Source: Patescibacteria group bacterium (GTDB taxonomy: Bacteria > Patescibacteriota > Microgenomatia > CAYGWK01). From it: a DNA stretch of 64,000 bases. Both the position numbers and the translations under genes were made by a program. Below are positions 1 to 22,724 of this stretch, in pieces (position 1 is the first letter of the stretch; each line of letters opens with the position of its first letter). The notes beneath the pieces were generated by a model. That model was given only the letters and a program-made list of their open reading frames with translations, made no database searches and was not told the DNA's origin. The DNA lies in contig JBMORX010000010.1 of assembly GCA_049322615.1 (NCBI GenBank), positions 25,416-89,415 on the forward strand, given 5' to 3'.

Positions 1-79
1 CGAAAATAATTTTAAAAACCTTAGCTCAATTCAAAACGCCAAAGGTGGCGATTTGGTTTTTTAAAACTGCCTGGAATTT

Positions 80-997
80 TTGGAGGTGGACCAAATGAAA
101 GCAAGCGTGATTATTCCCGCTTACAATGCCCAAAAAACCATTAAAGACTTGCTTGCCTCGCTTGTTTCTCAAGATTATCCTCAAAAGGATTATGAGGTAA
201 TTGTCGTTGATGATGGCTCCAAAGATAATTTAAAATTGAAACTGGAAATTAAAAATTTAATTTTTCTGCAACAGAAACATCAGGGAGCGGGAGCGGCACG
301 GAATTTGGGGGCGAAAAAAGCCCAAGGTGAGATTTTGGTTTTTACGGATAGCGATTGTCTGATTCCCAAAGACTGGGTAAAAAATCACTTCAAAAGTCAG
401 GAAAAATATAAAGATTTTGGGATTATTGGTGGGGGAGTCAAAAAACCCAAGGAAGGAACTTATCTGGCTTGGGCTGATTTTCTCTCTTCTTGGTTTAATG
501 CCCATGAAGATTTGCCCAAACAGGAGGTTAAGGAATATCTTCCTAGCTTAAACATAAGTGTTAAAAAGGAGGTGTTTGAAGAACTTGGTGGTTTTTGGGA
601 GAAAAAATTAACTGGCGAAGATGTTGATTTTTGTTTTCGCGGCCGTCAAAGAGGAGTTAAAATTTTATTTGAGCCTGCCTTGGCTGTCTGGCATCAAGCC
701 CCAACTTTTCAGGGTTTCTTAAAACATAACTTCAATTGGGGTTATCACGCCTCATTTGTCCGCGGACAACATCAAGCTTTGAGTTTTCATTGGCTCCTTT
801 CTGGCGGTTTTTTTAAGGCTTTAATTTTATTTTTGCCCCTTGTTTGCGGGTATACTCTCTATTTGCTTATCCGTTGGTGGCGCTATCAACCCCTAAGATT
901 TATTCTCTGTTTGCCTTTAATTTTTTTCGGCAAGACAAGCTATGCTTTAGGTGTCTTGGTTGGTTCTTGGCAGAAATCATTGAAGAAAAATGATTAG
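80..997 (+). CDS. Glycosyltransferase family 2
   Basis: N-terminal VIIPAYNAQKTIKDLLASL...YEVIVVDDGSKDN is a classic GT2 (GT-A) motif; C-terminal TM helices. Confidence 0.8.
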   Translation: MEVDQMKASVIIPAYNAQKTIKDLLASLVSQDYPQKDYEVIVVDDGSKDNLKLKLEIKNLIFLQQKHQGAGAARNLGAKKAQGEILVFTDSDCLIPKDWVKNHFKSQEKYKDFGIIGGGVKKPKEGTYLAWADFLSSWFNAHEDLPKQEVKEYLPSLNISVKKEVFEELGGFWEKKLTGEDVDFCFRGRQRGVKILFEPALAVWHQAPTFQGFLKHNFNWGYHASFVRGQHQALSFHWLLSGGFFKALILFLPLVCGYTLYLLIRWWRYQPLRFILCLPLIFFGKTSYALGVLVGSWQKSLKKND

Positions 998-2072
998 TAA
1001 AGTCTTAAAAACAGCGCTTGTCAGCTCTCTTTTTGGCTGGCAACAACCGAAACATCTTATCTTCCATGTCACCAGTCGTTGTAATGCCCGCTGTGGAATG
1101 TGTTTTGTCTGGAAGAGATTGAACAAAAATAAGGATTTGACTCTTGAGGAAATTGAAAAAATTGCCAAAATCTTACCTGGTCTTATTTTTCTCGATATCT
1201 CCGGTGGCGAACCCTTTTTACGAGATGATTTAACCCAAATTCTGGCTATTTTTGAAAAAGAAAGCCCGGGTGTTTATGTTAATCTTCCCACCAATGGTCT
1301 AATGCCGGAAAGAATCGAAAAAGAAACCCGGAAAATTTTGCGGGAAACAGATCTATCAATTTCTCTTAATCTTTCTTTAGATGGACTGGAAAAGACTCAC
1401 GATGAAATAAGAGGAGTGAAGGGAAATTTTGAGAAGGTTTTGCAAACCTACCGTCGGCTGGCTCAAGTGAAGAAAGAAAATCCCCGCCTTTCTTTAAAAG
1501 TAGCCACCGTTGTCTCTAAACTAAACTTTCATGAGCTTGAGGGTCTGGCTGATTTTGTCAAAAGGGAAATGAAAGAGATTGATTTTCAAACCTTAATCTT
1601 AGTGAGGGGAGAACCAGCGGATAAAAGTTTTACTTTGCCTCCGCTTGAGGAGTTGAAAAAGCAACAATCAACCTTTTTTGAGATTTGGCAAAATTATGGT
1701 TATGGGAAAAATCTTGGTTGGTTTGGCTCAAAAGTGGCTAATTCCTCTCATCGTTTCCTTTTTCATCTTTATCTTAAAACCCTAAAAGAAAAGAAAATGT
1801 CCTTACCTTGTTTAGCCGGCAATGCCCATGTCGTTGTCTTTGCCAACGGAGATTTGTCTTTTTGCGAACTGCGCCAGCCAATCGGCAATTTGAGAAAAGT
1901 TAACTTTAACTTTTGGTCACTCTGGCAAGGAAAAGAGGCTCAAAAGCAACGCCAAGAAATTGCCCAAAACGCTTGTTTTTGTACCCATGGCTGTAACTGG
2001 ACAGATAACATTTTTTTCAGTCTCAAAACCTACCCGTTTCTTGTTCGAGAATTAATCAGAAGTTTTTGCTAA
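990..2072 (+). CDS. Radical SAM / SPASM-domain protein
   Basis: CNARCGMC (CxxxCxxC) 4Fe-4S motif near N-terminus; LSGGEPFLR; C-terminal Cys cluster CFCTHGCNW typical of an auxiliary SPASM cluster; paralog of 5710..6783. Confidence 0.75.
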   Translation: MISKVLKTALVSSLFGWQQPKHLIFHVTSRCNARCGMCFVWKRLNKNKDLTLEEIEKIAKILPGLIFLDISGGEPFLRDDLTQILAIFEKESPGVYVNLPTNGLMPERIEKETRKILRETDLSISLNLSLDGLEKTHDEIRGVKGNFEKVLQTYRRLAQVKKENPRLSLKVATVVSKLNFHELEGLADFVKREMKEIDFQTLILVRGEPADKSFTLPPLEELKKQQSTFFEIWQNYGYGKNLGWFGSKVANSSHRFLFHLYLKTLKEKKMSLPCLAGNAHVVVFANGDLSFCELRQPIGNLRKVNFNFWSLWQGKEAQKQRQEIAQNACFCTHGCNWTDNIFFSLKTYPFLVRELIRSFC

Positions 2073-2084
2073 AATGGTCTAAAA

Positions 2085-4835
2085 ATGAAAAGGATTTTGT
2101 CCATATTGGGACATTTATTGGCTTTAGGAGTGATTCTTTTATTTTGGTTTCCAATTGCCAAATCTTATTATCAGGCGGTACCGACCATTGGGGCTGATTT
2201 TTTACAATTCCCAACCTATGTCGCTTATATTAAAAACCATTTCCAGCTTCCCCCTGCTTCTTGGAAATACATTTGGTACTCTGGTTTTCCTTTAGTTTTC
2301 GATATGGCTTGGCTTCATATGTATTTGACCCTACCCCTGACTTTTTTTCTGAGTGTTGTTAATGCCTCTCGCGCTTATCTGATCTTGACGATGTTTGGAC
2401 AATTGGCTTTTTCTTATCTTTTGCTTTACGAGCTTTGCCGAAGTCGCTTTGTCTCCCTGGCGCTCACCCTCGCTCTTTCCTCCTCAGTTAATTTCTATCA
2501 TGGGCTTTGGGATGGGGGAACAGCCACTTTTTCGGCCACCCGAATGTTTCTTCCCTTAACCTTACTCTGGTTCGTCAAATATTTTAAAAGTAAAAATAAC
2601 AAATTTCTCCTTTTGTCAGGACTGATCATCGGCTTGGCGATCCTTGGCCACCCAGGCTCACTTTTTCTTATCATTCTCGGCCCGGCCGTCTTATTCTTTT
2701 TGTTTTGGCAAGATAAAGAAACTCCCCTTTTGAGCCTTAAGAAAATCTTAGGCACCATTGTTTTTACCTTAATCGGTTTTCTGATTGGCGGAGTCACTCT
2801 CTATCCAATTATCGAGCAGATTTTGACCCATCCTGGCTTTGCCCAATTCGGTCTGACGACTAAAATCCATGAAGATGCTTTAACCGGAATTTACAGCTTC
2901 AGCAATCCTTTTTTACTTTTTTTGTTTTTTCTTTTTAGCTTCTTAGTTTTCTTCAGAGGAAAGATTAGAAGAGTGCCTGAGGCGACTGCCTTTTTGATCC
3001 TTATCCTTTATGTTTTAGGTTCTTGCGTCCTTTATCTTATTGGCCATCATCCTTTATCTCAAGCTTTGGGACCGGGAAGAATTTGGTGGATTTTCTCTTT
3101 GGCTCTCGCGGGGGCAATTGCTCTTTTTTGGCAGGCTCTTTTTCCAAGTCGGGAGGGAAAATGGTGGGCGAAAAAAAATTTGCTTTCTTTTTTAAGCCTC
3201 TTGCTTTTTGTGCCTATTTTTGCTTCATTTTATCTTCCTAGCTTCAAAGAAAGACTAGATAAGATTACCGCTGAACATATGGGTTATCCTTCTAATGTTC
3301 AATTAGCAGTTATTAACGAAGACAGACAAGCAATCGAAAAAGCCATTGTTCCTTCATGGTTGAACACTCAATTAATTGATTACCGCTATTATGAAATCAG
3401 TCCCGGAGTAGAAACTTGGTGGAATTCAGTTTTTCCCCTACCCTTGGTTAAGGGTTATTATGGAATTTTTGGGGTCAAAGCGACTGACTGGCTTTATTGG
3501 GTTGATAATACGCTTTTGGGCGAGTATGTTTGGCATTTTGGCGTCCCTGAGGCGATTGCCAAAAAGCATGCTCTTTTTCTTATTGACTGGTATGCTATTC
3601 GCTATTTTGAGGGAGGAGGTTTGGCCTTGGCTGAGTATCTTGAGCAAGATCCAGGAGTGGTGGAAACCAAAACAGAAGTTAATATTGAAGCCAGTGAACC
3701 CCTCAAGCCCTATAAATTTTTTGATGAGATCACCTCGCCCATTATTCGCCCAACCAACTCACCAACGATTCTTATGGTGGGCGACACGGTCGCCTACGAT
3801 ACCTTCTTAAAGGTGTTGGCCACAGAAAACTTAAACTCGCGCTATCTTATTCCTCTTCATGGGCCGGAATATCTCGAGGATCTTTCTTCCTGGGACTTGG
3901 CAGATTTTGATGTTATTTTTCTTTACAGCTACAAATACCGTAACGAAAAAGATTTCCGTTCCCGACCTAATAGGGTTTGGGAAAAGCTTGAGGAGTATGT
4001 CCGAGCGGGGGGAAGGCTTCTGATTGAAACCGGGGAGGAGGTTATGGAATCTGATTCAAGCGCTCTTTCTTCTCGGGGTCAAGACATTCTTCCTGACGTT
4101 TTTCCGATAGAGAGAACCTTAAGAGGAGCCCTAGGAGAAAGTTGGGATTTGACCGTGACCGAGAGCCCAATTGTTGAGGGGATAGAATTTGGAAAATTTT
4201 CTCAACTTTTGTATGAAGGCTCTCCTTGGAAACTTTCTTATGCCTCAAATAGTGTTCGCCCCTGGGCGAAAACGATTTTATCTCAAGGAGGAAAGCCAAT
4301 TTTAGTTGAGGGCAAATTAGGGGAAGGGAAGGTTATCTGGAGCGGGATTAATCTTCCTTACCATTTTTTATATTATCTTAATCTAGAAGAGGGAGAATTA
4401 TTCAAAAATATTTTAGGAGAGATGGTTAGTTTAGGAAGGGAGGAAGATATTAAAACTGCTCGGGTTTGGCGAATCTCTCCGGAGAAAATTGAGGTTTCTG
4501 GAGAAAATTTTTCCGGGATAGTCTTTAAAGAGCAGGCCTATCCCGGCTGGCAAGGCAATCTTTTGGAGCCCCAAAACAAAAAACTTAAAGTTTATCGGGC
4601 TGGTCCCTATTTTATGTATTTTAAAATTCCCGAAGAGACAAAGGGAAAGATTAAAGCCAGTCTCACCTATAAAGGAGCCCCTTTGGGATGGTTATTATTT
4701 ATTATCAGCATGGAGACCATCATCTTTGTTTTCCTCGGTTTTATTTTTGAAAAAAGTCTTTCAAGGTTTATCTTAATCTTGAGCAGTAAGGTTGGAAGAA
4801 GGCTAAATACTTGGTGGGGGAAGGAGGAGGAATGA
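2085..4835 (+). CDS. Large polytopic membrane protein (916 aa); about 10 N-terminal TM helices and a large C-terminal soluble domain; possible glycosyl/oligosaccharyl-transferase-like role
   Basis: Long uninterrupted ORF with many hydrophobic stretches in the first 400 aa; sits between GT2 and rSAM genes. Confidence 0.55.
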   Translation: MKRILSILGHLLALGVILLFWFPIAKSYYQAVPTIGADFLQFPTYVAYIKNHFQLPPASWKYIWYSGFPLVFDMAWLHMYLTLPLTFFLSVVNASRAYLILTMFGQLAFSYLLLYELCRSRFVSLALTLALSSSVNFYHGLWDGGTATFSATRMFLPLTLLWFVKYFKSKNNKFLLLSGLIIGLAILGHPGSLFLIILGPAVLFFLFWQDKETPLLSLKKILGTIVFTLIGFLIGGVTLYPIIEQILTHPGFAQFGLTTKIHEDALTGIYSFSNPFLLFLFFLFSFLVFFRGKIRRVPEATAFLILILYVLGSCVLYLIGHHPLSQALGPGRIWWIFSLALAGAIALFWQALFPSREGKWWAKKNLLSFLSLLLFVPIFASFYLPSFKERLDKITAEHMGYPSNVQLAVINEDRQAIEKAIVPSWLNTQLIDYRYYEISPGVETWWNSVFPLPLVKGYYGIFGVKATDWLYWVDNTLLGEYVWHFGVPEAIAKKHALFLIDWYAIRYFEGGGLALAEYLEQDPGVVETKTEVNIEASEPLKPYKFFDEITSPIIRPTNSPTILMVGDTVAYDTFLKVLATENLNSRYLIPLHGPEYLEDLSSWDLADFDVIFLYSYKYRNEKDFRSRPNRVWEKLEEYVRAGGRLLIETGEEVMESDSSALSSRGQDILPDVFPIERTLRGALGESWDLTVTESPIVEGIEFGKFSQLLYEGSPWKLSYASNSVRPWAKTILSQGGKPILVEGKLGEGKVIWSGINLPYHFLYYLNLEEGELFKNILGEMVSLGREEDIKTARVWRISPEKIEVSGENFSGIVFKEQAYPGWQGNLLEPQNKKLKVYRAGPYFMYFKIPEETKGKIKASLTYKGAPLGWLLFIISMETIIFVFLGFIFEKSLSRFILILSSKVGRRLNTWWGKEEE

Positions 4836-5713
4836 TCAGCTGCAGCCTCGGGGTCATGGCTTACAATGAGGAAAAAAATATTGCCCGGGCCTTAGAGGCT
4901 CTTCTTTCCCAAAAACTGAAGAAAGTGAAAATAAAAGAAATCTATATCATTGCCTCAGGCTGCACTGACAGGACAATTCCGATCACTAAAAGAATCGCCA
5001 AAACCGACAAACGGATTAAACTCTTGATTCAAAAAAAACGGGAAGGAAAGTCGTCGGCCGTTAATCTATTTTTAAAGCACGCTCGGAGCAAAATTGTCGT
5101 TTTGGTCGGGGCGGATACGCTCCCTCAAGAGGATGTCGTCGAGAAATTAGTGACCCCTTTTTTAGATCCCCAGATAGGGATGACCGGGGCTCACCCCATT
5201 CCGGTTGATCCGGATAATACCTTTTTCGGTTTTGCGGCCCATCTTTTATGGGAACTGCATCATCAAGTTTCTTTAAGCTCACCTAAAATGGGGGAGATGG
5301 TGGCTTATCGGAAAGTTTTTGAGAGAATCCCTTATGCTTCGGTAGTCGATGAAGCCACGGTTGAACCCCTAATTGTGGGTCAAGGGTATAAACTTCTTTA
5401 TGTTCCTTCGGCGATTGTTTTTAACAAAGGAACAGAGAATTTAAGGGAATTTCTAAAACAACGCCGGAGAATTCATACCGGACATCTAGCTTTAATTAAA
5501 GTCCAAGGCTATAGCGTTTCTACCTTGAGCAAAAGGCGGCTGTTTTTGGCTTGGCTTAAAAGTTTTAGGTTTGAGCCAAGATTTATTTTTTGGTCACCAT
5601 TAGTGGCTTTTTTGGAGATTGTCGCCCGGCTCTTGGGGACTTATGATTTCTATTTTAAAAAAGATAAGCACACAATTTGGGAAGTCGCTTACTCAACTAA
5701 AAGATTGAAATGA
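4832..5713 (+). CDS. Glycosyltransferase family 2
   Basis: CSLGVMAYNEEKNIARALEALLSQ...IASGCTD, DXD-like VGADT; start chosen at MISCSL inside ORF 4811. Confidence 0.75.
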   Translation: MISCSLGVMAYNEEKNIARALEALLSQKLKKVKIKEIYIIASGCTDRTIPITKRIAKTDKRIKLLIQKKREGKSSAVNLFLKHARSKIVVLVGADTLPQEDVVEKLVTPFLDPQIGMTGAHPIPVDPDNTFFGFAAHLLWELHHQVSLSSPKMGEMVAYRKVFERIPYASVVDEATVEPLIVGQGYKLLYVPSAIVFNKGTENLREFLKQRRRIHTGHLALIKVQGYSVSTLSKRRLFLAWLKSFRFEPRFIFWSPLVAFLEIVARLLGTYDFYFKKDKHTIWEVAYSTKRLK

Positions 5714-6783
5714 GGCGAATACTTTTTAAAATTCCATTTTTCTGGTTTTTTTATTCTTTTGGCTGGCCCAAGGTTTTGCCGGCCAACTATACATTCAGTC
5801 TGACTTTTAAATGCAATTCTCGCTGTCTAACCTGCAATATTTGGCAAAAGAGTGAAGAGGGGGAATTAACCCAGGCAGAATGGCAGAAAATCTTTTTGGC
5901 TTTGGGTAAATCGCCTTACTGGGTAACTCTTTCTGGAGGGGAGCCATTTTTAAGAAAAGATTTAATTGAAATTGTTAAAAATCTTTGCCAAATTTGTCAG
6001 CCAAAAATAATTACTATCCCCACCAATGGAATTTCAACTGCTAAAATCCAAAAAGATGTTCAGGCAATTTTAAAAGGTTGCCCCAAGACGCGTTTAATTA
6101 TCAACCTTTCTCTAGATGGAATCGGGGAAAAACATGATCAAATAAGGGGGGTTAAAGGTAATTTTGATAAAGCAATGGCAACTTATAAAAAACTGAAAAG
6201 GATAAAATCAAGAAATTTTGTCTTAGGAATTCATACCGTTATTTCAAGAGAGAATGTTAAAGACTTTTCTGAAATCTGCGATTTTGTTTTGGACCAACTT
6301 AAGCCTGATTCATATGTGACAGAAATCGCTGAACAAAGGGTTGAACTTGAGACAATGGGTAAAGATATTACTCCTAGTCTTGAAAATTATCAAAGGGCAG
6401 TAGATTATTTAGAGCAGAAGATGAGAAGGCAAAAATTAAAGGGCTTTTTCAAATTAACTCAAGCCTTTAGATTTACTTATTATGATTTAGTTAAAAAAAT
6501 CATGGAAAAAAAAGCCCAAGTTATTCCTTGCTATGCTGGGATACTTTCTTGCCAGATAGCCTCCAATGGCGATGTTTGGCAGTGTTGTGTTCGCGCCGAT
6601 GTTTTAGGCAATTTAAAAAAAGAAAATTTTGATTTTTCAAAGATTTGGTTTTCAAAAAAAGCTGATAAAATAAGAAAATCAATCAAAAATAGAGAGTGTT
6701 ACTGCCCATTGGCTAATGCTTCCTATACTAATGTTTTAATGAGCCCAACCTCAATGACTAAAGTTATCTTTAATTTTTTTTAA
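5710..6783 (+). CDS. Radical SAM / SPASM-domain protein (paralog of 990..2072)
   Basis: CNSRCLTC motif; LSGGEPFLRKDL; PTNG; GVKGNF; C-terminal Cys-rich CQIASNGDVWQCC...CYCP. Confidence 0.75.
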   Translation: MRRILFKIPFFWFFYSFGWPKVLPANYTFSLTFKCNSRCLTCNIWQKSEEGELTQAEWQKIFLALGKSPYWVTLSGGEPFLRKDLIEIVKNLCQICQPKIITIPTNGISTAKIQKDVQAILKGCPKTRLIINLSLDGIGEKHDQIRGVKGNFDKAMATYKKLKRIKSRNFVLGIHTVISRENVKDFSEICDFVLDQLKPDSYVTEIAEQRVELETMGKDITPSLENYQRAVDYLEQKMRRQKLKGFFKLTQAFRFTYYDLVKKIMEKKAQVIPCYAGILSCQIASNGDVWQCCVRADVLGNLKKENFDFSKIWFSKKADKIRKSIKNRECYCPLANASYTNVLMSPTSMTKVIFNFF

Positions 6784-7706
6784 TGAATGTCTTAATTACC
6801 GGCGGGACAGGCTTTATTGGTAAGCATCTAGTTGATGCTTTAGTCAAAAAAGGGCACCTGGTGAAGGTTATTGCCAGAAATCCCCAAAAAGCAGAGCCAG
6901 TGAAAAAGTTGGGGGTTAGGGTTGTGATTGGCGATTTAGGAAATAAAGAGTTTTTGAAAAAAGAGCTTGAGGGAATTGAAATTGTTTATCATTTAGCGGC
7001 TATTCCAGGCCAAGCCTGGGGCATTCCTTGGGAGGAATATAAAAAGGTGAATGTTGATTTTACCAAGAATTTGCTTAAAGCAGCCGTTCAAAATAAAATT
7101 GAAAAATTTATCTTCTGCAGTTCGGTTCAAGCTGTTGATCCCTCGACTTTTTATGGCAAATCAAAACTTGAGGCAGAAAAAGAAGTTAAAAAAAGCAATT
7201 TGGAATACGTTATTGTCAGGCCTGGCGTAGTTTATGGACCAGGTGATAAGCAGGCAATTTTGCGGATTTGTCAGCTAGTTAAGAAGGGATTTTTCCCTTT
7301 GATTGGCGGAGGGAAGACAAAATTAGCGATTATTTTTATTGATGATTTAATTGATCTTTTTTTGCAATGTCTTACTTCGAAGGTAAAAAATAAAACAATT
7401 TGGGGAATTGGTGAAGAGATTACTTATAAAAACTTAGTCAAAATAATAGGCAAGGAGTTGGGCAAGCCCTGTTGGCAGGTTTTTTTACCGGCGCCATTGG
7501 TAAAAACAGTCGCTTTTCCTTTGGAGGCGATTTCCTCAATCACTGGGATTCGACCTTTGGTTACCCGAGCCCAGGTTGATTTTGTTACTTTTGGTTGGTA
7601 TTTTGCTGTTCCCAAGGAACAAAAACGAATTTGGCAGCCGAAGGCAAAGTTTGCCGAAGAAATTAAAAAAACAATTGAGTGGTATAAAGAAAATGGCTAT
7701 CTATAA
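6783..7706 (+). CDS. NAD-dependent epimerase/dehydratase (SDR family)
   Basis: MNVLITGGTGFIGKHLVDAL Rossmann GxxGxxG; YGKSK catalytic motif. Confidence 0.8.
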   Translation: MNVLITGGTGFIGKHLVDALVKKGHLVKVIARNPQKAEPVKKLGVRVVIGDLGNKEFLKKELEGIEIVYHLAAIPGQAWGIPWEEYKKVNVDFTKNLLKAAVQNKIEKFIFCSSVQAVDPSTFYGKSKLEAEKEVKKSNLEYVIVRPGVVYGPGDKQAILRICQLVKKGFFPLIGGGKTKLAIIFIDDLIDLFLQCLTSKVKNKTIWGIGEEITYKNLVKIIGKELGKPCWQVFLPAPLVKTVAFPLEAISSITGIRPLVTRAQVDFVTFGWYFAVPKEQKRIWQPKAKFAEEIKKTIEWYKENGYL

Positions 7707-8091
7707 AAAACTCCCGCTTTGGCAAAAATACAAACCCAAAATTTATGGTTTAGGAGAGGTTTATGAGCAGATTTCCGTAGAAAGAAAGAAAAAGAGATTA
7801 AAGGAAAAATTTGGGTCAGGAATTTTGTTTCTTTGTCCAAATAAAAAGCATTCTGGTAGGGGGTTAGCCCTAGAAGAACTGCAAGAAAAAGTCCGCCAGC
7901 AAAAATATCTAATTTTAACCAGTGGCTTTGTTGATTCACCACCGTGGCGATCTTCTCCTGGCAAAAGAAAAGGCTTGAAATTACCCCTTTTCTTGGCGAA
8001 AATAATTTTTTATGGCTTGAGTTTCTTGGAGTCTTTTTGGGAAGGAGAAGAAAATTCTCATATAGTTTATGTTTTAGGCAGAAAAAAGTAA
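7693..8091 (+). CDS. Hypothetical small basic protein
   Basis: ORF 7576..8091 overlaps the epimerase; internal Met at 7693 (MAIYKK) fits the gene spacing. Confidence 0.3.
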   Translation: MAIYKKLPLWQKYKPKIYGLGEVYEQISVERKKKRLKEKFGSGILFLCPNKKHSGRGLALEELQEKVRQQKYLILTSGFVDSPPWRSSPGKRKGLKLPLFLAKIIFYGLSFLESFWEGEENSHIVYVLGRKK

Positions 8092-8092
8092 G

Positions 8093-9467
8093 ATGAAAGT
8101 TTTATTGCTTCACCCCCAACTGAAAAAATATAAACAGCCCCGTCTTCCGCCTTTGGGACTTTTGTCAATTGCCGCCGTTTTGGAGAAAGAAGGACATCAG
8201 GTTTTTGTTTTGGATTTGAATGTTGAGCCTAATAACTTAGAAAGGTTTCTCAGAAAGAGATTTGATTTAGTTGGGATTACCGCAACCACTCCTTTAATCA
8301 AAGAAGCCTGGCGACTGACTAAGATTTGTAAGAGAAGAAAGTTGCCCGTAATTTTGGGCGGACCCCACCCTTCGGCTTTACCTGAAGAATCTTTAAAAAA
8401 GGGAATAGTTGATATTGTTGTTCGTCACGAGGGTGAGGAGACAATGAAAGAACTTTGTGCCAAATGGCCAAAATACCAAAAAATTGCGGGAATTTCTTAT
8501 ATTAAAAATGGGAAAGTTGTCCATAATCCTAATCGCCCCCTAATTCAAAACCTGGATAGTCTTCCTTTCCCTGCCCATCATCTTTTAGGCGATATTAGTC
8601 GCTATAGTCCCCCTCAACCTGTTTTAACTAAACAGAAAAAAACTTTGACCTTGATTTCTTCCCGCGGTTGTCCTTATCATTGTAATTACTGCTACAAGGG
8701 TGTTTTTGGCGATCGCTGGCGAGCCCACAGCCCGGAATATATTTTAAATCTTTGGGAATATTTGGTTAAGGAATTTGGGGTCGAAGAAATCGGAGTGGAA
8801 GACGATACTTTTAATCTAGACCCAAAAAGAGTCGAGGCAATTTGTGCTGGTTTGGGCAAAAGAAAAAATTAAAACTTCCTGGACCACCGCCCAGGGATTA
8901 AGGGCGGATAGAATCACCAAAGGCCTTTTAGTGAAAATGAAAAAAACTGGTTTTTATCGAACAGGCTTTGGGATTGAATCAGGCAGCCAAGAAATGGTTG
9001 ACAAAATCGGCAAAAATTTGAATTTAGCCAAGGTCCCCGAAGTCATTTCTTTCTGTAGAAACCTGGGGATAGAATCTATTGGTTATTTTATGATCGGTAA
9101 CGCTGGCGAAAACAAAAGGACGATGGAGGAAACGATTGATTACGCCATTAAGCTTGACCCAGATATTGCTCATTTTACTATTGCCACCCCCTTACCTGGT
9201 AGCCCCCTTTATGACCAGGTAAAAAAAGAAGGAAAACTGCTGATTACTGATTGGGATCTTTATGGTTATACCCAAGGCAGGTGTTATTTTGAGATGGGTG
9301 AGGTAAAAAAGGAGCTGGTGGAGAGGATGTGGCGAAAGGCTTATCGCCAATTCTACTTACGTCCTGCAGTGATTAAACGATTTTTAACCAGAAAAGAGAC
9401 GTGGCTTAACCTCCCCAAAATGGTTCAAGCTAGTCTTTCTTATCTGGGTATACGAAAGGAAACTTAA
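8093..9467 (+). pseudogene. B12-binding-domain radical SAM protein, split by a frameshift near 8840-8880 (two ORFs 8093..8872 and 8844..9467)
   Basis: N-terminal part has a B12-binding-like fold and SRGCPYHCNYC; the second ORF continues the homology (GFGIESGSQEM as in the two paralogs); the frameshift sits at the A-run gggcaaaagaaaaaatt. Confidence 0.6.
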
Positions 9468-10939
9468 TGGCGGATATCGTTTTAGTTCAACCAGTGGTGG
9501 GTCTTTTAGATAATATTAAGACGGCTCCTGGTTTGCCCCTCTCCCTTCTTTCGGCAGCTAAGTTGGTATCCAAGGAATTTAAGGTTAAGATTATTGACCA
9601 AAGGCTGGATTTTGCCTGGAGAGAAACCCTGAAAAAAGAATTGAAAAAGAAGCCTTTGTTGGTGGGGACAACGGCGATGCTTGGGCCGCAGGTTGAATTT
9701 GCCAGGATGGTTGGGGAGGAGGCAAAAAAGATAAATCCAGAAATCCCGGTAGTTTGGGGCGGACCCCATCCCTCTGTTTTGCCTGAGCAAACTCTTCAAG
9801 ATGAAACAGTGGATATCATTGTTGAGGGCGATGGGGAAGAGACGTTTTTAAAGCTGGCTCGGGGTTTGAAAAAAAAGAAATCTTTAAAAGCAATTCCTGG
9901 TCTTTATTTCAAAAAAGGAAACAAGGTGATTTACACCCGGCAGGCACCCCTAGTTGATTTAAATAAAATGCCGGATATTCCCTATGAGTTAGTTGATGTT
10001 TATCAATACTTGCCAAGAAGGGGAAAAGTGACGGCTTTGGATATGGAAACTTCTCGGGGTTGTCCTTATCGGTGTCGTTTTTGTTACAATCCCTTTTTTA
10101 ATCGCGGTCGCTGGCGGGCTTTAAAAGCGGAAATAGTTTTGGCAAGGATAAGGAAAATTGTTGAGAAATACAAAATTAAGGGGATTTGGTTTATTGATGA
10201 TGAATTTTTTATTGATCTTAAAAGAGCCAGAGAGATCATTGAGGGGTTGATAGAATTAAATCTTCACTGGACAATTCAGGGTGTAACTGCCAATTCGGTG
10301 CTAAGGATGGATGATAGTTTTTTGTCTTTGTTGGAGAAATCGGGTTGTGAACAATTAAATATTGGGGCTGAGTCAGGATCATTGCGGATTTTAAAAATGG
10401 TGGAAAAAGGCATTACTCCTCAAGATATTTTAAGGGTTAATCGCAAGCTTAAGCCCTACAAAATTATGCCCTGGTTTTATTTTATGATTGGCTTCCCTCA
10501 AGAAACGAAAACAGATGTTCACAAAACAATTAACCTCGTTCTTCGCTTACTTAAAGAAAACCCCAGGGCGAAAGTTTCCGGGATTGGCTGTTTTACTCCC
10601 TATCCGGGGACATCTCTTTTTGAGGAAGCGAAAAAAGAGGGTTTTGTGCCCCCCAAAGATCTTCTTGGTTGGCGGACTTTTTCGGTTGACCAAATTAATG
10701 TCCCTTGGTTAAAAGGGGAGAAAAAAGCAATGGTAGAAGCGGTTCAGTTCGCCTCCTTTTTTGTTGACGAAAAAGCCCGCGATGTGGCTTCTTCACTTTT
10801 GGTCAGACTGATTGCCGAGCTTTATCGACCCATCGCTCATTGGCGCCTAAAACGGAAGTTTTGGGGTTTACCTTTTGATGTTATGATTGGCAACCGGATT
10901 AAAAAAGAATTGGCTAAAAGGAGGATTTCCGTTTTTTAA
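9467..10939 (+). CDS. B12-binding-domain radical SAM protein (class B rSAM, methyltransferase-like)
   Basis: SRGCPYRCRFCYNP; N-terminal Rossmann-like B12-binding region; ATG overlaps the upstream stop (TAATG). Confidence 0.75.
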   Translation: MADIVLVQPVVGLLDNIKTAPGLPLSLLSAAKLVSKEFKVKIIDQRLDFAWRETLKKELKKKPLLVGTTAMLGPQVEFARMVGEEAKKINPEIPVVWGGPHPSVLPEQTLQDETVDIIVEGDGEETFLKLARGLKKKKSLKAIPGLYFKKGNKVIYTRQAPLVDLNKMPDIPYELVDVYQYLPRRGKVTALDMETSRGCPYRCRFCYNPFFNRGRWRALKAEIVLARIRKIVEKYKIKGIWFIDDEFFIDLKRAREIIEGLIELNLHWTIQGVTANSVLRMDDSFLSLLEKSGCEQLNIGAESGSLRILKMVEKGITPQDILRVNRKLKPYKIMPWFYFMIGFPQETKTDVHKTINLVLRLLKENPRAKVSGIGCFTPYPGTSLFEEAKKEGFVPPKDLLGWRTFSVDQINVPWLKGEKKAMVEAVQFASFFVDEKARDVASSLLVRLIAELYRPIAHWRLKRKFWGLPFDVMIGNRIKKELAKRRISVF

Positions 10940-10943
10940 AAAA

Positions 10944-12353
10944 ATGAAGTTCCTTTTTATTCAGAAAAGCGCTTTTCCTTTAGCTGGAGTGATGAGTCTT
11001 GGGGCGGTCATCAAAAAAACCGGCTGGCAAGTGGATCTAGTTTTAGCGGGAGAAGAGGATATTTTAAAAAAGGTTTGGGAGTTTCAGCCCCAGGTAGTGG
11101 CTTTTCCTGTTTTTACCGGTGAACATCAGTGGGTCCTTCGGCAGGCGCGGGTTTTAAAGAAAAAACATCCTCGTATTTTTATTCTTCTTGGTGGTTCCCA
11201 TCCCACTTATTATCCTGACATCGTTAAAGAAAAAGGAGTTGATGGCATTATTAGGGGAGAAGCCGAAGGAGCAGTTTTGGACTTATTGAAAGCTTTAGAA
11301 CAAAAAAAATCCTTAACTAAAATCAAGAATCTTTGGTTGAAGAAAGGAAAAAGGATTCATAAAAATCCCTTGCGTCCCCTGATTGAGGATTTGGATAGTT
11401 TGCCTGTTCCCTTAAGAGGAATTTATTATCAATATAATTTTTTAAAAAATGCCTCGGTCAAACAATTTTTAACCGGCAGGGGATGTCCTTATAATTGCAC
11501 TTTTTGCTCTAACCATCTTTTGCGCCAGATGTATCAGGGTAAGGGTAAATATCTTCGCCGACATTCTCCTTTAAGGGTTATTCAGGAGATAAAAGAAGTT
11601 TGGGAAAAATATGGCTTTAAGACAATTTCTTTTACTGACGATGTTTTTACTGTTGATAAAAATTGGTTAAAAGAATTTTTGCCTCTTTACCGAAAGAAGA
11701 TTGGGGTGCCTTTTATGGTGAATGTCACTGCCAACTCGTTGGATGAAGAATTAGCCAAGATGCTTAAAAAGGCTGGTTGTTACGGAATTGCCATGGGAAT
11801 TGAATCAGGAAGCCAAGAAATGAGGTTTAAAGTCCTTAAGAAATTTATCACCGATAAACAGATTTTTGAAGGAGGAAGATTGGCAAAAAAATACAATTTA
11901 GTTCTTAAGACCTACAATATTTTATCCTTGCCTGGCGAGACACTTCAAGATGCCATTAAGACGATTAAAATCAATGCTGCCCTTAAACCCTTATCAGCCA
12001 CGGCTTCCCTTCTTCAACCGTATCCAGATTACGAAATTACCCGCTACGCGGCCAGAAAAGGCTTTTTAGCGAAAAATTTTGGGATCGATGATGTCTTCGA
12101 AAGTATTTATCTGGCTTCCCCAATTAAGGGGAAAGAATCCCAAGAAATTGAAAACCTTCAGGCTTTTTTCCCTTTTTTGGTGGCCCATCCCAAATTTATT
12201 CCCCTCGTCAAACCATTGCTCAGGTTGCCATTCCGCTGGCTTTTTAGATTAGTGGCCAGAATTACTTACGGATTTTATATGAGCCGCGTCCATCGACTTT
12301 CTTTGCTAGATAAGATTCGATTCCTCCATCATATAGACCCTTTGAAGGTTTGA
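10944..12353 (+). CDS. B12-binding-domain radical SAM protein (third paralog)
   Basis: TGRGCPYNCTFCSNH; GIESGSQEM; start at MKFLFIQ just after the upstream stop. Confidence 0.75.
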   Translation: MKFLFIQKSAFPLAGVMSLGAVIKKTGWQVDLVLAGEEDILKKVWEFQPQVVAFPVFTGEHQWVLRQARVLKKKHPRIFILLGGSHPTYYPDIVKEKGVDGIIRGEAEGAVLDLLKALEQKKSLTKIKNLWLKKGKRIHKNPLRPLIEDLDSLPVPLRGIYYQYNFLKNASVKQFLTGRGCPYNCTFCSNHLLRQMYQGKGKYLRRHSPLRVIQEIKEVWEKYGFKTISFTDDVFTVDKNWLKEFLPLYRKKIGVPFMVNVTANSLDEELAKMLKKAGCYGIAMGIESGSQEMRFKVLKKFITDKQIFEGGRLAKKYNLVLKTYNILSLPGETLQDAIKTIKINAALKPLSATASLLQPYPDYEITRYAARKGFLAKNFGIDDVFESIYLASPIKGKESQEIENLQAFFPFLVAHPKFIPLVKPLLRLPFRWLFRLVARITYGFYMSRVHRLSLLDKIRFLHHIDPLKV

Positions 12354-13182: not shown

Positions 13183-13976
13183 CTCGCAAGGCGATTCCTT
13201 GCGAGGCTAAAGGTCGTAATCGATTAAGGCAGTTTTGATTAAAGAAAAATCTTCTGTTTGTTTAACAAATGCTAGATAGTCTAATCGGGGATTCTTTTTA
13301 GAAAAATAAGAGAGTATTTCTTCTGGATGAACCCAGCTTGCTTGTCTTTGTCCTAAATATTCTGGCAACGAAGACGGTTGAGAAGTCCACCCACGAAAGG
13401 CATTGCCTTTTGAGGCTAATTCTTCAGGGTTGCGGTGAATATAACTAGTTAAATAAAGGAGTTGCTCTTCGGATTCAGCCATAACCGCTTTATATTGCGA
13501 TTGATACAGATGTCCAACGCGTTTATATTTTTTATTAAAAAACATGGTATATCTTGTCCCTAAAGAGTTCATAAATCTATCAATTGCATCTTTCGACTTT
13601 TGTTTTAAGAGAAAATGAAAATGGTTGGGCATTAAACAATAAGCGAGGAGAATTATTTCCCTCGAGAAGTTATTCAATCGCAAAAGTTTCAAAGCTTTGT
13701 CTTTCTCTTTGTAACTTGTTGATGGGCTAGAGAGTATTTCTCTAAGTTGCTTCTCGTTTTTGGGGAGGAGATATGTTTTAAGATATGAAAGAAAAACGGC
13801 ATAATCTTGTTCGTCAGAAAATATTTGGCGTTTTTCCACTCCCCGGTTATAAATATGATAGTAGCCATTTTCGATATATACTTTAAGAGCATTTTTAGCA
13901 GGCATAATTGCAGTCTTACACAAACGAAAGTATTTGTCAAGTTCACAAGGAGTTGCCTTGCGAGGCTAAAAGATCC
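13183..13976 (-). mobile_element. IS200/IS605-like (RAYT-like) HUH transposase element with flanking hairpins
   Basis: CDS 13207..13923 encodes YHIYNRGVEKRQIF and LMPNHFHFLL (HuH motif) plus a conserved Tyr region; a ccttgcgaggctaaa(g) motif flanks both ends (13191-13212 and 13953-13973). Confidence 0.65.
13207..13923 (-). CDS. IS200-like / REP-associated tyrosine transposase (Y1 HUH)
   Basis: HuH motif MPNHFHFLL; N-terminal YHIYNRG; 238 aa. Confidence 0.65.
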   Translation of the reverse strand: MCKTAIMPAKNALKVYIENGYYHIYNRGVEKRQIFSDEQDYAVFLSYLKTYLLPKNEKQLREILSSPSTSYKEKDKALKLLRLNNFSREIILLAYCLMPNHFHFLLKQKSKDAIDRFMNSLGTRYTMFFNKKYKRVGHLYQSQYKAVMAESEEQLLYLTSYIHRNPEELASKGNAFRGWTSQPSSLPEYLGQRQASWVHPEEILSYFSKKNPRLDYLAFVKQTEDFSLIKTALIDYDL

Positions 13977-14063: not shown

Positions 14064-14633
14064 TCATTTTTTGAGGTGTTCGACTATTTTATAAAGAATA
14101 ATTCCTGCCGAAACCATCACGTTTAAAGAACGGTTTATTCCTAACATTGGTAGTTCGACGATAACATCGGCTTTTTCTAAGACGCTTTTCGAGATACCAT
14201 ATGTTTCGTTGCCAACCACCACTGCTACAGGAAATTTTGGCTGTAAATCTTTATAGGAAATTGCTTCTTTTTTCTGCTCAACGCAAATTATTTGAACACT
14301 TTTTTTCTTCAGTGAATTGACAACTGAAAGAGCACTTTTTGAATATTCCCAAGGGACCCATTTCCAAGTGGAAACCGAAGCCTTTTTAATTTTTGGGTTA
14401 GGAGGGGTTTCGGTTTGACCACAAAGATAAATTTTTTCTGCCGCCACCGCATCAGCTAAGCGAAAAAGAGCGCCAACATTGTAGGTATCCAAAACATTAT
14501 CCAAAACAAGATAAATTGGATTGCGCTTGATTTTTTTAAGTTCTTCTTCGGTTGGTTCGGTCGTCCTTAGTTCTTTAGCGCCAAGTTTAAGCATCATGTT
14601 CATTTTAGCACAAAAATTTGCTATAATTAACAC
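14064..14633 (-). CDS. SpoU/TrmH-family RNA 2'-O-methyltransferase
   Basis: YLVLDNVLDTYNVGALFRLADA, VVGNETYGIS, LPMLGINRSLNVMVSAGIILYKI are SPOUT-family motifs. Confidence 0.8.
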   Translation of the reverse strand: MLIIANFCAKMNMMLKLGAKELRTTEPTEEELKKIKRNPIYLVLDNVLDTYNVGALFRLADAVAAEKIYLCGQTETPPNPKIKKASVSTWKWVPWEYSKSALSVVNSLKKKSVQIICVEQKKEAISYKDLQPKFPVAVVVGNETYGISKSVLEKADVIVELPMLGINRSLNVMVSAGIILYKIVEHLKK

Positions 14634-14701: not shown

Positions 14702-14774
14702 GGCCCCATCGTCTAGTGGTTTAGGACATGAGGTTTTCAGCCTTAAAACCAGGGTTCGAATCCCTGTGGGGTCA
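14702..14774 (+). tRNA. tRNA-Glu (UUC)
   Basis: Cloverleaf folded by hand: acceptor GGCCCCA/TGGGGTC, D-arm GTCT..GGAC, anticodon stem TGAGG/CCTTA with loop TTTTCAG, T-arm CAGGG TTCGAAT CCCTG; no encoded CCA. Confidence 0.8.
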
Positions 14775-16473
14775 CAGACAAGGATTTTGAGGTTTTAAAA
14801 TCGCTTTTTAGGGCGAAAAGACGGGCTAATTTAGGTGTTCGATTAACTAAATCATCATAAGTTGGCAACTCTTCGAAAAGTAACCCAAACATAGCTGCGT
14901 TTCTAAGGGGTTCGGAGCTTGAGAACAATAATTCTTCGGGGTGTTCGATGTAATATTTCAGGTATCCTAAGACTACCTGGACATCCACTTGTTGCTTTTC
15001 CTTTCGATCACGGATAAGAGTCGCTTGGGCTTTTTCTTGCTCCAAGTTGTCAATATCATCTTCTAAAAGCTTGATGGCTGCCACAGAAGTTAAGACTTTA
15101 ATCTTTTCTTTTAGGTTCTGAATTTCTTGTTCAATTTGGGTGACTCTTTGACCAAAGTTTATTGTATCATCAGATAAATTCTTCTCCCGCTTCTCCCACT
15201 CCTCCAAAACGATTTGCCTGAACCGAATAAAATACTCCTCACTAAACTTAACATCTTCTACGAAGGATTTAATTGTTTTATGAAACTCTGCAACTGGAAT
15301 CCCGATATATTTATGGTTCCTCCCACAGTTGCCGCAGTGATAATAACCATGACGTTCTCCGTTCTTGCTTCTGGAGAAAGAGGCTAAGAGAGACTTTCGA
15401 CAGATGGGACATAAAACATAGTGACGGTAAGGAAATAGGGGATTTTCCTTTAACTTCTTTTGCCCCCAAGGCGATTTTTGGTTTCTTAGAAGAGATACGG
15501 TTCCATCGGGATTTTCTACGATAACAATCTTGCCTCGGTTAGCTTTGTTAAACATGTCTATTGTAACTAAACCATCGAACCGTTCCTTAATTGGTTTACC
15601 TTCTGTCCAAAACTCATCGTTAATTCCAGCGTAGATGGGATTCTGAATATATCGTTGAAATTGTTTCACTGTTAATTTATTGCCACCGCCAAAACCTATT
15701 ATTTTCTTTTTATCGTTGGGGTCATGTCTTTTAAACTTTCTTGATCTAAAACCCATGTCGTTTATTTCCTTTACAATCTCTTTATCATCCAAATTTCCCT
15801 GAATCCTTAGCTCATACATGCGAATAAACCAAGGCGCTTCGGTAGGATCGCCTTCAAGAATTACTCTCATCCCACGCTCGGTTTCTATTTTTTGGTTGCG
15901 AAATCCCATCGGTGCCTGCCTAACATGGTATCCCATGCGAACATATCGAATTTCTGCCCCGATTAGTCTTGTCAAAATCGTTCTGACCTCCTCACGTGCC
16001 CGCTCTGCATCAAGAAGTTCAGTAATCCAGGTAGGGGAAAACTCTGACCAGTCGTATCGGACGTTTAGGTGTGCCAGGGTATTTATTTTTTGGGTGCCGA
16101 TAATTCCCATAACGTCTACAAGCTGGATTCCTAATTTTGAAAGTTGTGTTTTAAGAAGACCGTAGATGGTCGAACCACCTCTGGTAAATCTATCTATGCT
16201 TTTAGTGAAGAAGAACCTGATTTTGTTCGCGGGGTTTTTACAGTATTCTATAGCTTTTAAGACAGGTTGCGTGTCCAACTCGCCTGAAGCTGACTCAGTA
16301 AATTCGAATATCTTCCTAATTTCTATTCGGCAGTTAAGAAGTGTTCCTAATTGTTCTGCTCGAATTTTTATTTGTTCAAGCTGCTCTTCTGGAGAGTCAC
16401 CCGTCATCTCCTGCTTAAGAGAGCTTACCCGAATATCCGCAACCGCGTATTGAATTTCCCGCTCATCCTTCAT
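14743..16473 (-). CDS. Large serine recombinase (integrase); its 3' end overlaps the tRNA-Glu 3' half
   Basis: N-terminal resolvase domain YAVADIRVSSLKQ (catalytic Ser); recombinase domain; C-terminal zinc ribbon CPICRK...CGNCGRNH; coiled-coil tail; last residues PQGFEPWF are translated from the antisense of the tRNA T-arm. Confidence 0.8.
   Translation of the reverse strand: MKDEREIQYAVADIRVSSLKQEMTGDSPEEQLEQIKIRAEQLGTLLNCRIEIRKIFEFTESASGELDTQPVLKAIEYCKNPANKIRFFFTKSIDRFTRGGSTIYGLLKTQLSKLGIQLVDVMGIIGTQKINTLAHLNVRYDWSEFSPTWITELLDAERAREEVRTILTRLIGAEIRYVRMGYHVRQAPMGFRNQKIETERGMRVILEGDPTEAPWFIRMYELRIQGNLDDKEIVKEINDMGFRSRKFKRHDPNDKKKIIGFGGGNKLTVKQFQRYIQNPIYAGINDEFWTEGKPIKERFDGLVTIDMFNKANRGKIVIVENPDGTVSLLRNQKSPWGQKKLKENPLFPYRHYVLCPICRKSLLASFSRSKNGERHGYYHCGNCGRNHKYIGIPVAEFHKTIKSFVEDVKFSEEYFIRFRQIVLEEWEKREKNLSDDTINFGQRVTQIEQEIQNLKEKIKVLTSVAAIKLLEDDIDNLEQEKAQATLIRDRKEKQQVDVQVVLGYLKYYIEHPEELLFSSSEPLRNAAMFGLLFEELPTYDDLVNRTPKLARLFALKSDFKTSKSLSVTPQGFEPWF

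Positions 16474-22681: not shown

Positions 22682-22724
<43 letters not shown>

Follow-up and report, generated by a model that had tools for sequence, protein, structure and literature searches.

A conserved radical-SAM and glycosyltransferase operon in a Patescibacteria genome, a candidate pathway for tailoring lipid-linked sugars of the cell surface

What does a dense run of radical S-adenosylmethionine (SAM) enzymes and glycosyltransferases do in the genome of a Patescibacteria group bacterium? The question is raised by the first 12 kb of a 64,000-nucleotide stretch of contig JBMORX010000010.1 (assembly GCA_049322615.1, positions 25,416 to 89,415), here called the window, in whose own positions all coordinates are given. 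The cluster spans 95-12353 on the plus strand and codes for two family-2 glycosyltransferases (GT2a and GT2b), two related radical-SAM (rSAM) enzymes (rSAM-a and rSAM-b), a membrane protein of 916 amino acids (aa) that we call MEM, an NAD enzyme of the short-chain dehydrogenase/reductase type (SDR), a small protein (orf132) and three rSAM enzymes with a B12-binding domain (B12-rSAM #1 to #3). The reading that we favor, with a probability of roughly 0.5, is that of an operon for making a lipid-linked sugar or short glycan, tailoring it by radical chemistry and delivering it to the cell surface. The observations that carry it are the domain content and operon structure of the cluster, the conserved linkage of its genes, the GT-C-like fold of MEM and the twitch-type cysteine pattern of rSAM-a and rSAM-b. 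A glycan, glycolipid or envelope target had already been proposed in the first-pass annotation of this DNA, and it fits, since MEM is GT-C-like and the genes lie in glycan-type neighborhoods.

The cluster consists of 10 genes in 11 open reading frames (ORFs), all in single file on the same strand (Table 1). The first-pass annotation had counted twelve and left orf132 undescribed; the co-directional arrangement, the two GT2s, the sugar epimerase-type SDR and the 916-aa protein that it had reported were all recovered as ORFs and, MEM apart, by their Pfam domains. Throughout the cluster, neighboring genes overlap stop to start or sit no more than 12 nt apart, so that the ten genes form one translationally coupled unit, an operon, in which there is no room for a small precursor gene. 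The position at which the cluster had been taken to start is an artefact of the window edge. In frame 3, no stop occurs between position 3 and a TGA at 96-98, which overlaps the ATG of GT2a at 95, and the last 31 residues of this ORF (KIILKTLAQFKTPKVAIWFFKTAWNFWRWTK) can be aligned with the C-terminal ends of the B12-rSAMs preceding GT2a in two related loci (L138 and L140). Because its tail aligns in this way, we read the cluster as extending upstream of the window; the gene cut by the left edge is likely a fourth class-B rSAM, which would bring the rSAM total to six. From L138 and L140, one or two GT-C-like genes and a GT2 are predicted to stand ahead of this B12-rSAM. A scan for promoters and terminators was uninformative, with results barely above those of shuffled controls. 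Judged by their divergence, the paralogs in the cluster are old, and a recent tandem duplication was rejected: rSAM-a and rSAM-b are 34% identical, the B12-rSAMs ca. 30% mutually, and GT2a and GT2b lack BLASTP similarity. GC content is 0.36-0.41 in the cluster and 0.42-0.49 further along the window. A horizontally acquired island was considered and set aside, given that the higher-GC region is dominated by an rRNA operon and that the cluster is syntenic in related genomes of the Candidate Phyla Radiation (CPR).

Table 1. Genes of the cluster and the truncated gene at the left edge, in window positions
Feature	Position	Strand	Description
Upstream gene, 3' end	1..98	+	truncated at the left edge; probably a fourth radical-SAM gene of the B12-binding type
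GT2a	95..997 (ORF from 80; likely start ATG 95)	+	family-2 glycosyltransferase with C-terminal hydrophobic helices
rSAM-a	990..2072	+	twitch-like radical SAM with a single auxiliary cluster (4 Cys); 34% identical to its paralog rSAM-b
MEM	2085..4835	+	916 aa; polytopic, GT-C-like
GT2b	4811..5713 (likely start ATG 4832)	+	family-2 glycosyltransferase, cellulose-synthase-like minimal type
rSAM-b	5710..6783	+	twitch-type radical SAM; anchor of the conserved module
SDR	6783..7706	+	extended SDR, NAD-dependent epimerase/dehydratase/3beta-HSD type
orf132	7693..8091	+	132-aa conserved protein; same-position genes in L007 and L059
B12-rSAM #1	8093..9467	+	class B radical SAM; ORFs 8093-8872 and 8844-9467, one-base frameshift
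B12-rSAM #2	9467..10939	+	class B radical SAM; PF02310 60 bits, PF04055 82 bits
B12-rSAM #3	10887..12353 (likely start ATG 10944)	+	class B radical SAM; PF02310 56 bits, PF04055 82 bits

Synteny was followed in contigs and metagenome loci of relatives (L001 to L141). The 11.96-kb contig L007, from a metagenome-assembled genome (MAG), keeps the window order MEM-GT2b-rSAMb-SDR-orf132-B12#1-B12#2-B12#3 at 36-68% aa identity, with an intact B12-rSAM #1, and L059 has the same genes with MEM relocated between orf132 and B12-rSAM #1. L001 carries a methyltransferase, a B12-rSAM, two large unannotated proteins (the 914-aa member of the pair is a MEM paralog), MEM (56% identical), GT2b (72%), rSAM-b (62%), a haloacid dehalogenase-type (HAD) gene, a methyltransferase and a B12-rSAM. 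In both L138 and L140, two PTPS_related proteins of ca. 900 aa are followed by a GT2, a B12-rSAM, GT2a, rSAM-a and MEM. Directly 3' of MEM, L138 continues with GT2b, rSAM-b, a methyltransferase and a B12-rSAM, and L140 with a methyltransferase; on the other strand of L140 there follow a GT2, an rSAM/SPASM gene, an rSAM with a faint B12-binding match and another GT2. L141 combines a GT4, a UDP-GlcNAc 2-epimerase, four B12-rSAMs, the GT2a-rSAMa pair, a 959-aa PMT_2-like protein, a further rSAM and an SDR. Because the gene set recurs, largely in the same order, in several independent genomes and metagenomes, we take the arrangement not to be due to chance; the conservation of the rSAM-GT linkage in relatives (L007, L059, L138, L140 and others), on which the first-pass annotation had made its proposal depend, is thus borne out. 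The same annotation had called the cluster unusual for a CPR genome, a view that does not hold: several genomes of Patescibacteria and DPANN have the cluster as well, or else its core. As a side observation, the rSAM/GT cluster of L140 is directly followed (18127-20243) by a small ferredoxin, a helix-turn-helix regulator and NifS/NifU-like Fe-S assembly genes; the many Fe-S enzymes may be supplied in this way, or the adjacency could be coincidental.

The most conserved part is the pair GT2b-rSAMb. Full-length homologs of rSAM-b with 52-78% identity were found in Patescibacteria, Aenigm-, Alti-, Nano- and Micrarchaeota, Cloacimonetes and Nitrospiraceae, the identity between bacteria and archaea being 52-58%. 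A GT2b-type gene lies immediately upstream of rSAM-b in an Altiarchaeota genome (4-nt overlap) and in a 1.8-Mb bacterial contig (1-nt gap), and GT2b orthologs in this position, in bacteria and archaea, score 170-460 bits. A Nitrospiraceae contig has GT2b, rSAM-b and an SDR within 4 kb, with ca. 3 kb between GT2b and rSAM-b. The Altiarchaeota locus also contains a PMT_2 protein, a Polysacc_synt flippase, methyltransferases, an SDR and two small EamA-like membrane proteins. We counted the neighbors of rSAM-b in 80 metagenome loci, 20 of which have 3 kb on both sides. A GT2b-type gene was directly upstream in 21 of the 53 loci with enough flank. Of the 20 loci, 13 have GT2b and 7 an SDR at a distance of up to 5 kb, and 10 have a B12-rSAM at up to 8 kb. 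The Pfam families of 103 neighboring ORFs from 16 loci were led by Radical_SAM (13), GT2 (11), B12-binding (10) and Epimerase (7), with GT1 (3) and PMT_2 (2) among the others. By these comparisons, GT2b-rSAMb is a highly conserved module that often has an SDR, further B12-rSAMs and GT-C genes nearby. A tblastn search of 72,556 plasmids with rSAM-b and B12-rSAM #2 gave distant superfamily matches only (at most 28% and 34% identity, respectively).

The enzymes themselves belong to the radical-SAM superfamily, with PF04055 scores of 68-82 bits for rSAM-a, rSAM-b and B12-rSAM #2 and #3 and with CX3CX2C motifs (CNARCGMC, CNSRCLTC, CPYHCNYC, CPYRCRFC and CPYNCTFC) in the translations. rSAM-a has such a CX3CX2C, a PF04055 match of 75 bits and a SPASM match slightly under the cut-off, and its top NCBIfam matches are HxsC (76 bits) and MoaA (71 bits). 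rSAM-b matches both PF04055 and PF13186, and its top NCBIfam matches are ScmE (80 bits) and WgkB (71 bits); the PF13186 matches of the two proteins are weak (21-27 bits). The first-pass annotation was right in taking them as paralogs, but its assignment to the SPASM type has to be corrected. In an alignment of 25 family members, rSAM-a included, the radical-SAM cysteines C35, C39 and C42 (rSAM-b numbering) are invariant, and the only invariant auxiliary ones are C274, C292, C330 and C332, with neither a seven-cysteine C-terminal motif nor CX2CX5CX3C. Since just four auxiliary cysteines are invariant, the C-terminal domain of both proteins is predicted to be twitch-like, with one extra Fe-S cluster. 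The AlphaFold2 (AF2) model of rSAM-b (pLDDT 93.4) has its best TM-score with BlsE (0.65/0.70), a twitch enzyme whose substrate is a sugar nucleoside, and also matches SkfB, SuiB, MoaA, DesII, BtrN and viperin. No N-terminal RRE (the recognition element of enzymes acting on ribosome-made peptides modified after translation, RiPPs) is present in rSAM-b: the rSAM core begins at about residue 30, and the alignment with SkfB starts at SkfB residue 105. The high identity between bacteria and archaea, the lack of an RRE and the best structural match to BlsE all argue for a small-molecule or sugar-related role of rSAM-b. rSAM-a is represented by ca. 15 orthologs at 58-76% identity. All are preceded by a gene of the GT2a type, and those of L138 and L140 are followed by a MEM homolog.

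MEM was modeled by AF2 (pLDDT 75.6) as ca. 11 N-terminal transmembrane (TM) helices, a mixed alpha/beta domain of ca. 470 aa and a C-terminal TM helix. In Foldseek searches, the matches of its TM part included STT3 of the yeast oligosaccharyltransferase (6ezn_F, 7oci_F and 8age_A, TMq 0.30-0.33) and mycobacterial AftD (TMq 0.34), and the soluble part matched STM3548 and the C-terminal domains of GH42/GH164. An aspartate after TM1 (G-x-D, D38), in the first external loop, is kept in all eight MEM-family sequences that cover the region. MEM thus displays what is expected of a GT-C enzyme, that is, a polytopic N-terminal module, an acidic residue in the first external loop and a large extracytoplasmic domain. 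A word index yielded only nine homologs. Among nine family members compared with Pfam, five match PTPS_related, one YfhO and one PMT_2, and we regard MEM, on model and profiles together, as a YfhO/PTPS-related GT-C-like membrane protein. A pattern scan of GTDB genomes found the family at 48 loci, mostly of Patescibacteria (best match 36% identity); in Dormibacterota, Chloroflexi and some archaea, the C-terminal half occurs by itself as well. Distant homologs are found in ordinary glycan clusters without rSAMs, together with GT2, GT4, methyltransferases, an epimerase and PMT_2. Five loci from Microgenomates-type MAGs (L012, L013, L016, L017 and L021) have two or three tandem or nearby MEM-family paralogs of ca. 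900-1000 aa with no rSAM nearby, which suggests that the family has expanded in these lineages. Incidentally, the titles of L009, L010, L012, L014 and other TPA_asm records with MEM homologs of the CPR type read "uncultured Gammaproteobacteria bacterium," labels that look unreliable given the gene content.

Both GT2a and GT2b contain the GT-A fold domain PF00535 (101 and 82 bits) with acidic residues for binding the nucleotide sugar and metal. GT2a is preceded by a Shine-Dalgarno-like GGAGGTGG at 83-90, carries DSD and has hydrophobic segments at residues 237-294. In NCBIfam it comes closest to MftF (130 bits, cut-off 280), followed by EpsD (127 bits, cut-off 370). Its matches to polyprenyl-phosphate sugar synthases (DPMS 35, ArnC 30 and GtrB 23 bits) are weaker than those to other GT2s. 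Orthologs of GT2a sit before rSAM-a in L138, L140 and L141. GT2b also matches PF13632 and, weakly, SunS (NCBIfam), its best PDB match is 6yv7, deposited as "Glycosyl transferase, family 2," and it has one hydrophobic segment (residues 251-269). Conserved in 27 orthologs are D46, D95, D173-E174 and the QxxRW-like motif Q210-R211-x-R213-I214. The small orf132 is 41-44% identical to the genes at the same position in L007 and L059, and matched no Pfam or NCBIfam family. Its own family is tiny (51 clusters among 1.84 billion representatives), and one homolog (P0285) has a GT2 domain fused to the orf132 domain; orf132 is probably a GT2 accessory protein.

The SDR shows GxxGxxG and YxxxK and matches PF01370 (111 bits) and PF01073 (98 bits). 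Its top NCBIfam match is HpnA (143 bits over the full length, cut-off 368), and it also matches MoeE5 and UDP-GlcA 4-epimerase. The three tandem B12-rSAMs of the first-pass annotation were confirmed by their domains, with the correction that #1 is split. In #1, PF02310 and PF04055 are divided over two ORFs (PF04055 32 and 29 bits for the halves), and the intact ortholog of L007, compared with the window by tblastn, is 68% identical in one reading frame and 65% in a second. The frame switches between AICAGL and KEKIKTSW, within 8850-8869, where there are GGG and A runs, and both halves are otherwise intact. The frameshift amounts to a single additional base, which either arose in assembly or is a mutation of very recent date. 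Once repaired, #1 has HpnJ as best NCBIfam match (208.7 bits, near full length, cut-off 577.6), as does #2 (148 bits), and #3 is best matched by BchE (138 bits) and HpnJ (129 bits), both under the cut-off; BchE, ApyD and PhpK are other strong matches of these enzymes. B12-rSAM #2 and #3 are 57% and 56% identical to their L007 orthologs, and the closest solved structure to #2 is 9ccb (QCMT, 63 bits), a likeness at superfamily level only. With PF02310 (56-77 bits) and PF04055 in all three, they are class B radical-SAM enzymes by domain architecture, and their use of cobalamin is predicted. The idea of an HpnP/HpnR-type lipid C-methylase found no backing: with a cut-off of 650, the HpnR scores are 101, 59 and 72 bits, and HpnP is not among the NCBIfam matches listed. 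None of the three reaches the equivalog level of HpnJ or HpnR.

From all this we infer the carrier, the sugar, each reaction, the flippase and the acceptor of the following scheme. The membrane-associated GT2s would act at the cytoplasmic face and put a sugar on a lipid carrier or lipid-linked acceptor, perhaps one of them with the help of the orf132 protein. The twitch rSAM coupled to each GT2 would then abstract hydrogen from the sugar, leading to oxidation, dehydration or decarboxylation, as in BtrN, DesII and BlsE, and the SDR would reduce or epimerize the product. The three (probably four) class-B rSAMs could add C-methylation or an HpnJ/OxsB-like ring rearrangement. After flipping, MEM, as a YfhO/PTPS-related GT-C, would move the tailored sugar to an extracytoplasmic acceptor, which may be a wall polymer or an S-layer or pilin protein.

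Several results weigh against this scheme. Pfam scans of 1-12353 revealed no flippase-like gene of the GtrA, Wzx or ArnE/F type. No enzyme of the cluster attains a curated family cut-off, and no reaction can be assigned. MEM itself falls in no Pfam or NCBIfam family, and its assignment to GT-C is a modest one, drawn from TM-scores of 0.30-0.34 and weak profile matches in homologs. The fold of rSAM-b resembles RiPP maturases (SkfB and SuiB) as well as sugar enzymes. The SDR is directly 3' of rSAM-b in 9 of 51 loci, so that rSAM and SDR form no obligate "epimerase pair." QxxRW-like motifs are typical of cellulose-synthase-like or lipid-acceptor GT2s and not of the polyprenyl-phosphate sugar synthases DPMS, GtrB and ArnC. 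Because GT2b has this motif and only a weak PDB match to GtrB (22.8 bits), it lacks the GtrB/DPMS-type look, and its carrier may not be polyprenyl phosphate.

A rival reading is a membrane glycolipid head-group pathway. Here a GT2 would glycosylate a membrane lipid, perhaps a scavenged one, the rSAMs would form a carbocycle or another modified head group or methylate the lipid, and the product would stay in the membrane. The top curated matches, HpnJ and HpnA, are indeed hopanoid side-chain families, the SDR is as close to 3beta-HSD, OleD and sterol-type SDRs as to nucleotide-sugar epimerases, and the QxxRW-like motif of GT2b is shared with lipid-acceptor GT2s. Moreover, ring contraction of a lipid-bound sugar by rSAMs is the chemistry proposed for HpnJ and Cds (PMC13459092). 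Yet every score is far under the equivalog cut-off, the cluster has no HpnK-like deacetylase and no squalene/hopene genes (none of the latter families turned up in Pfam and NCBIfam scans of the cluster and selected window ORFs, with no dedicated search of the window or genome), and Cds homologs are found mainly in organisms of acidic environments (PMC13459092). Such a pathway would also leave unexplained the one to three GT-C-like proteins of ca. 900 aa conserved in the clusters, and we consider it unlikely. That the cluster makes and exports a soluble specialized metabolite (aminoglycoside-, nucleoside-sugar- or moenomycin-like, or a cofactor) appears quite improbable, in spite of the fact that sugar-acting twitch and class-B rSAMs are known mainly from such pathways. 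BtrN, DesII, BlsE and AprD4 are among the matches, GenK and MoeK5 are given as class-B methyltransferases in a review, the SDR matches MoeE5 and UDP-GlcA 4-epimerase, and GT2a is closest to MftF. However, the core pair is highly conserved in very small CPR and DPANN genomes and in many phyla, which is untypical of secondary metabolites, and no orthologs are found on the sequenced plasmids. The cluster is embedded among GT-C-like membrane proteins and envelope glycan genes and contains no aminotransferase, cyclase, nucleoside diphosphate (NDP)-sugar synthase or exporter. Nor is it a mycofactocin system: MftC scores 51-59 bits (cut-off 265), MftF stays under its own cut-off, and there are no other Mft genes.

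The first-pass annotation had argued against a RiPP cluster, and we agree that one is very improbable. SPASM-like rSAMs and B12-rSAM C-methyltransferases would in that case modify a ribosomal peptide (cf. polytheonamide and bottromycin), to be glycosylated by the GT2s. The maturases HxsC, ScmE, WgkB, SkfB and SuiB do figure among the best NCBIfam, PDB and fold matches of rSAM-a and rSAM-b, ApyD and rSAM_ocin_1 among the matches of the B12-rSAMs, and GT2b has its weak match to SunS. Against this, there is no precursor ORF candidate and no space for one between the genes, an RRE is absent, and Pfam scans of the cluster found no PqqD-like gene, protease or exporter. orf132 is unlike a precursor, being conserved over its whole length and fused to a GT2 in one homolog; rSAM-b is too similar between the domains of life, and the neighbors are GT-C, GT2, GT4, SDR and methyltransferase genes. 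That housekeeping rSAMs (MiaB, RlmN, MoaA and the like) came to lie next to unrelated glycosyltransferases by chance can be regarded as refuted. MoaA (46-71 bits, cut-off 231-325) and MiaB/RimO/MtaB (21-42 bits, cut-off 251-606) are matched far under their cut-offs, and RlmN is absent among the NCBIfam matches listed. As the first-pass annotation had supposed, no rSAM of the cluster is a housekeeping enzyme, and the genes are translationally coupled with a linkage conserved in many genomes.

The rest of the window is chromosomal, with an rRNA operon, tRNAs, S1, RadA-like, Rho, an M23/LysM peptidase and two giant ORFs on the minus strand (47531-53386, 1951 aa, and 53948-63904, 3318 aa), between which lies an ORF of 187 aa that weakly matches 23S_rRNA_IVP. 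Directly 3' of the cluster, on the opposite strand, are an IS200-like Y1 transposase (13207-13923), a SpoU methylase (14064-14633) and a 576-aa ORF (14743-16473) with a weak Pfam Recombinase match (19 bits, under the cut-off). The start of this recombinase-like ORF overlaps a tRNA-Glu (14702-14775, plus strand), and GC content is 0.38-0.39 at 16-20 kb; an integrated element may lie to the right of the tRNA. Among the ORFs without a Pfam family in this low-GC stretch is a DUF4238 protein (18594-19544, minus strand, 153 bits). Both large rRNA genes have long insertions: the small-subunit (SSU) rRNA at 22676-25051 measures 2376 nt against a 1533-nt model and includes an Rfam group I intron at 23474-23703, and the large-subunit (LSU) rRNA at 31503-35313 measures 3811 nt against a 2925-nt model. 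The 16S-23S spacer of ca. 6.4 kb (25051-31503) holds several ORFs of 130-270 aa on both strands, a tRNA-Ile (28806) and a tRNA-Ala (31339). The full 5S rRNA (36736-36851) is preceded by a partial 5S-like match (36634-36686, model positions 14-66, 39 bits), possibly the remnant of a duplication.

Returning to the surface-sugar reading, one can go a step further and suppose, tentatively and with less confidence than for that reading, that GT2b-rSAMb, the SDR and the B12-rSAMs represent a widespread, oxygen-independent way of rewriting a lipid-linked sugar before its transfer to the surface by a GT-C enzyme. The rewriting might be an epimerization via a radical-generated keto intermediate, a C-methylation to branched-chain sugars or a contraction to a carbocycle. 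We found no description of the module in the literature, searching for rSAM with glycosyltransferases in Patescibacteria, rSAM with GT-C and undecaprenyl, and CPR with B12-binding rSAM. To our knowledge, nearly all rSAMs and B12-rSAMs known to act on sugars belong to antibiotic pathways or to two lipid head-group cases (HpnJ and Cds). rSAM-rich clusters of unclear role are common in anaerobes, and here such enzymes are wired into what appears to be primary cell-envelope glycosylation. If this is true, host-attached CPR bacteria and DPANN archaea would display an undescribed class of surface sugars, made by an enzyme chemistry new to envelope glycan biosynthesis. This would be new sugar chemistry on ultra-small episymbionts, a group in which the biology of contact between cells is little understood, and it would demand a supply of cobalamin and Fe-S clusters in genomes with minimal metabolism. 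GT2b and rSAM-b are a compact two-gene unit for enzyme discovery. Even if the model is wrong, the module is a large uncharacterized radical-SAM family with a clear genomic partner.

How does the cluster compare with systems already described? Like the solved class-B enzymes QCMT (9ccb), TokK, TsrM, OxsB and CysS, and like AprD4, the B12-rSAMs have an N-terminal Rossmann B12-type domain and a CX3CX2C core, but the likeness stays at superfamily level (31-63 bits), and the substrates of those enzymes are peptides, carbapenams and nucleosides; AprD4 is grouped separately, as an unrelated enzyme, in a class-B review. rSAM-b shares with BlsE, BtrN and DesII the fold and the single auxiliary cluster, with its four invariant auxiliary cysteines, at 13-15% identity. 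The substrates of those three are soluble (nucleosides, NDP-sugars or aminocyclitols) and belong to antibiotic pathways, whereas the rSAM-b family is coupled to a GT2 and found in CPR, DPANN and other anaerobes. The nearest parallel in a cultured organism is a block on the 36-kb plasmid of Brachyspira hyodysenteriae with six radical-SAM genes, GT1/GT2, two HAD genes, an NAD epimerase, rfbC and rfbF, a similarly dense mix of rSAM, GT, HAD and SDR genes that has been proposed to serve lipooligosaccharide biosynthesis or glycosylation and is linked to colonization and virulence. The likeness is one of gene classes, with orthology not established; no GT-C-like protein is reported there, and Brachyspira is absent among the top plasmid matches listed for rSAM-b.

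Closer in logic are systems that work on lipid-bound sugars. Radical chemistry on such sugars is described for HpnI/HpnJ (bacteriohopanetetrol cyclitol ether) and Cds (calditol), HpnJ being the proposed glucosamine ring-contraction enzyme of a glycolipid (PMC13459092). The hopanoid enzymes HpnI (GT2), HpnJ (B12-domain rSAM), HpnA (SDR) and HpnH (rSAM) are of the same classes as those of the cluster, and HpnJ and HpnA are the best curated matches of the B12-rSAMs (BchE being slightly higher for #3) and of the SDR, with scores well short of the cut-offs (HpnJ 129-209 against 577.6, HpnA 143 against 368 and HpnH 51 against 225 bits). The hpn clusters lack the GT-C proteins present here, and our cluster lacks their squalene/hopene cyclase genes and HpnK. 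In the three-component systems, a lipid-carrier sugar synthase (a GT2 or other) is combined with a flippase and a GT-C, and auxiliary epimerases can act on the lipid-linked sugar (PMC11127046). A full-text literature search found no system of this type with radical-SAM or B12-radical-SAM enzymes. They also differ from our cluster in having a flippase (the two small EamA-like proteins occur only in the Altiarchaeota relative), and GT2b looks more cellulose-synthase-like (QRxRI) than GtrB/DPMS-like. What GtrA/GtrB/GtrC, CsbB/GtcA/YfhO, ArnC/ArnEF/ArnT and PPPRS/MATE/GT136 have in common with our cluster is the association of a glycosyltransferase at the cytoplasmic face with a large polytopic GT-C protein that has an extracytoplasmic domain. 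MEM shares the architecture of YfhO, and its homologs match PTPS_related, YfhO and PMT_2.

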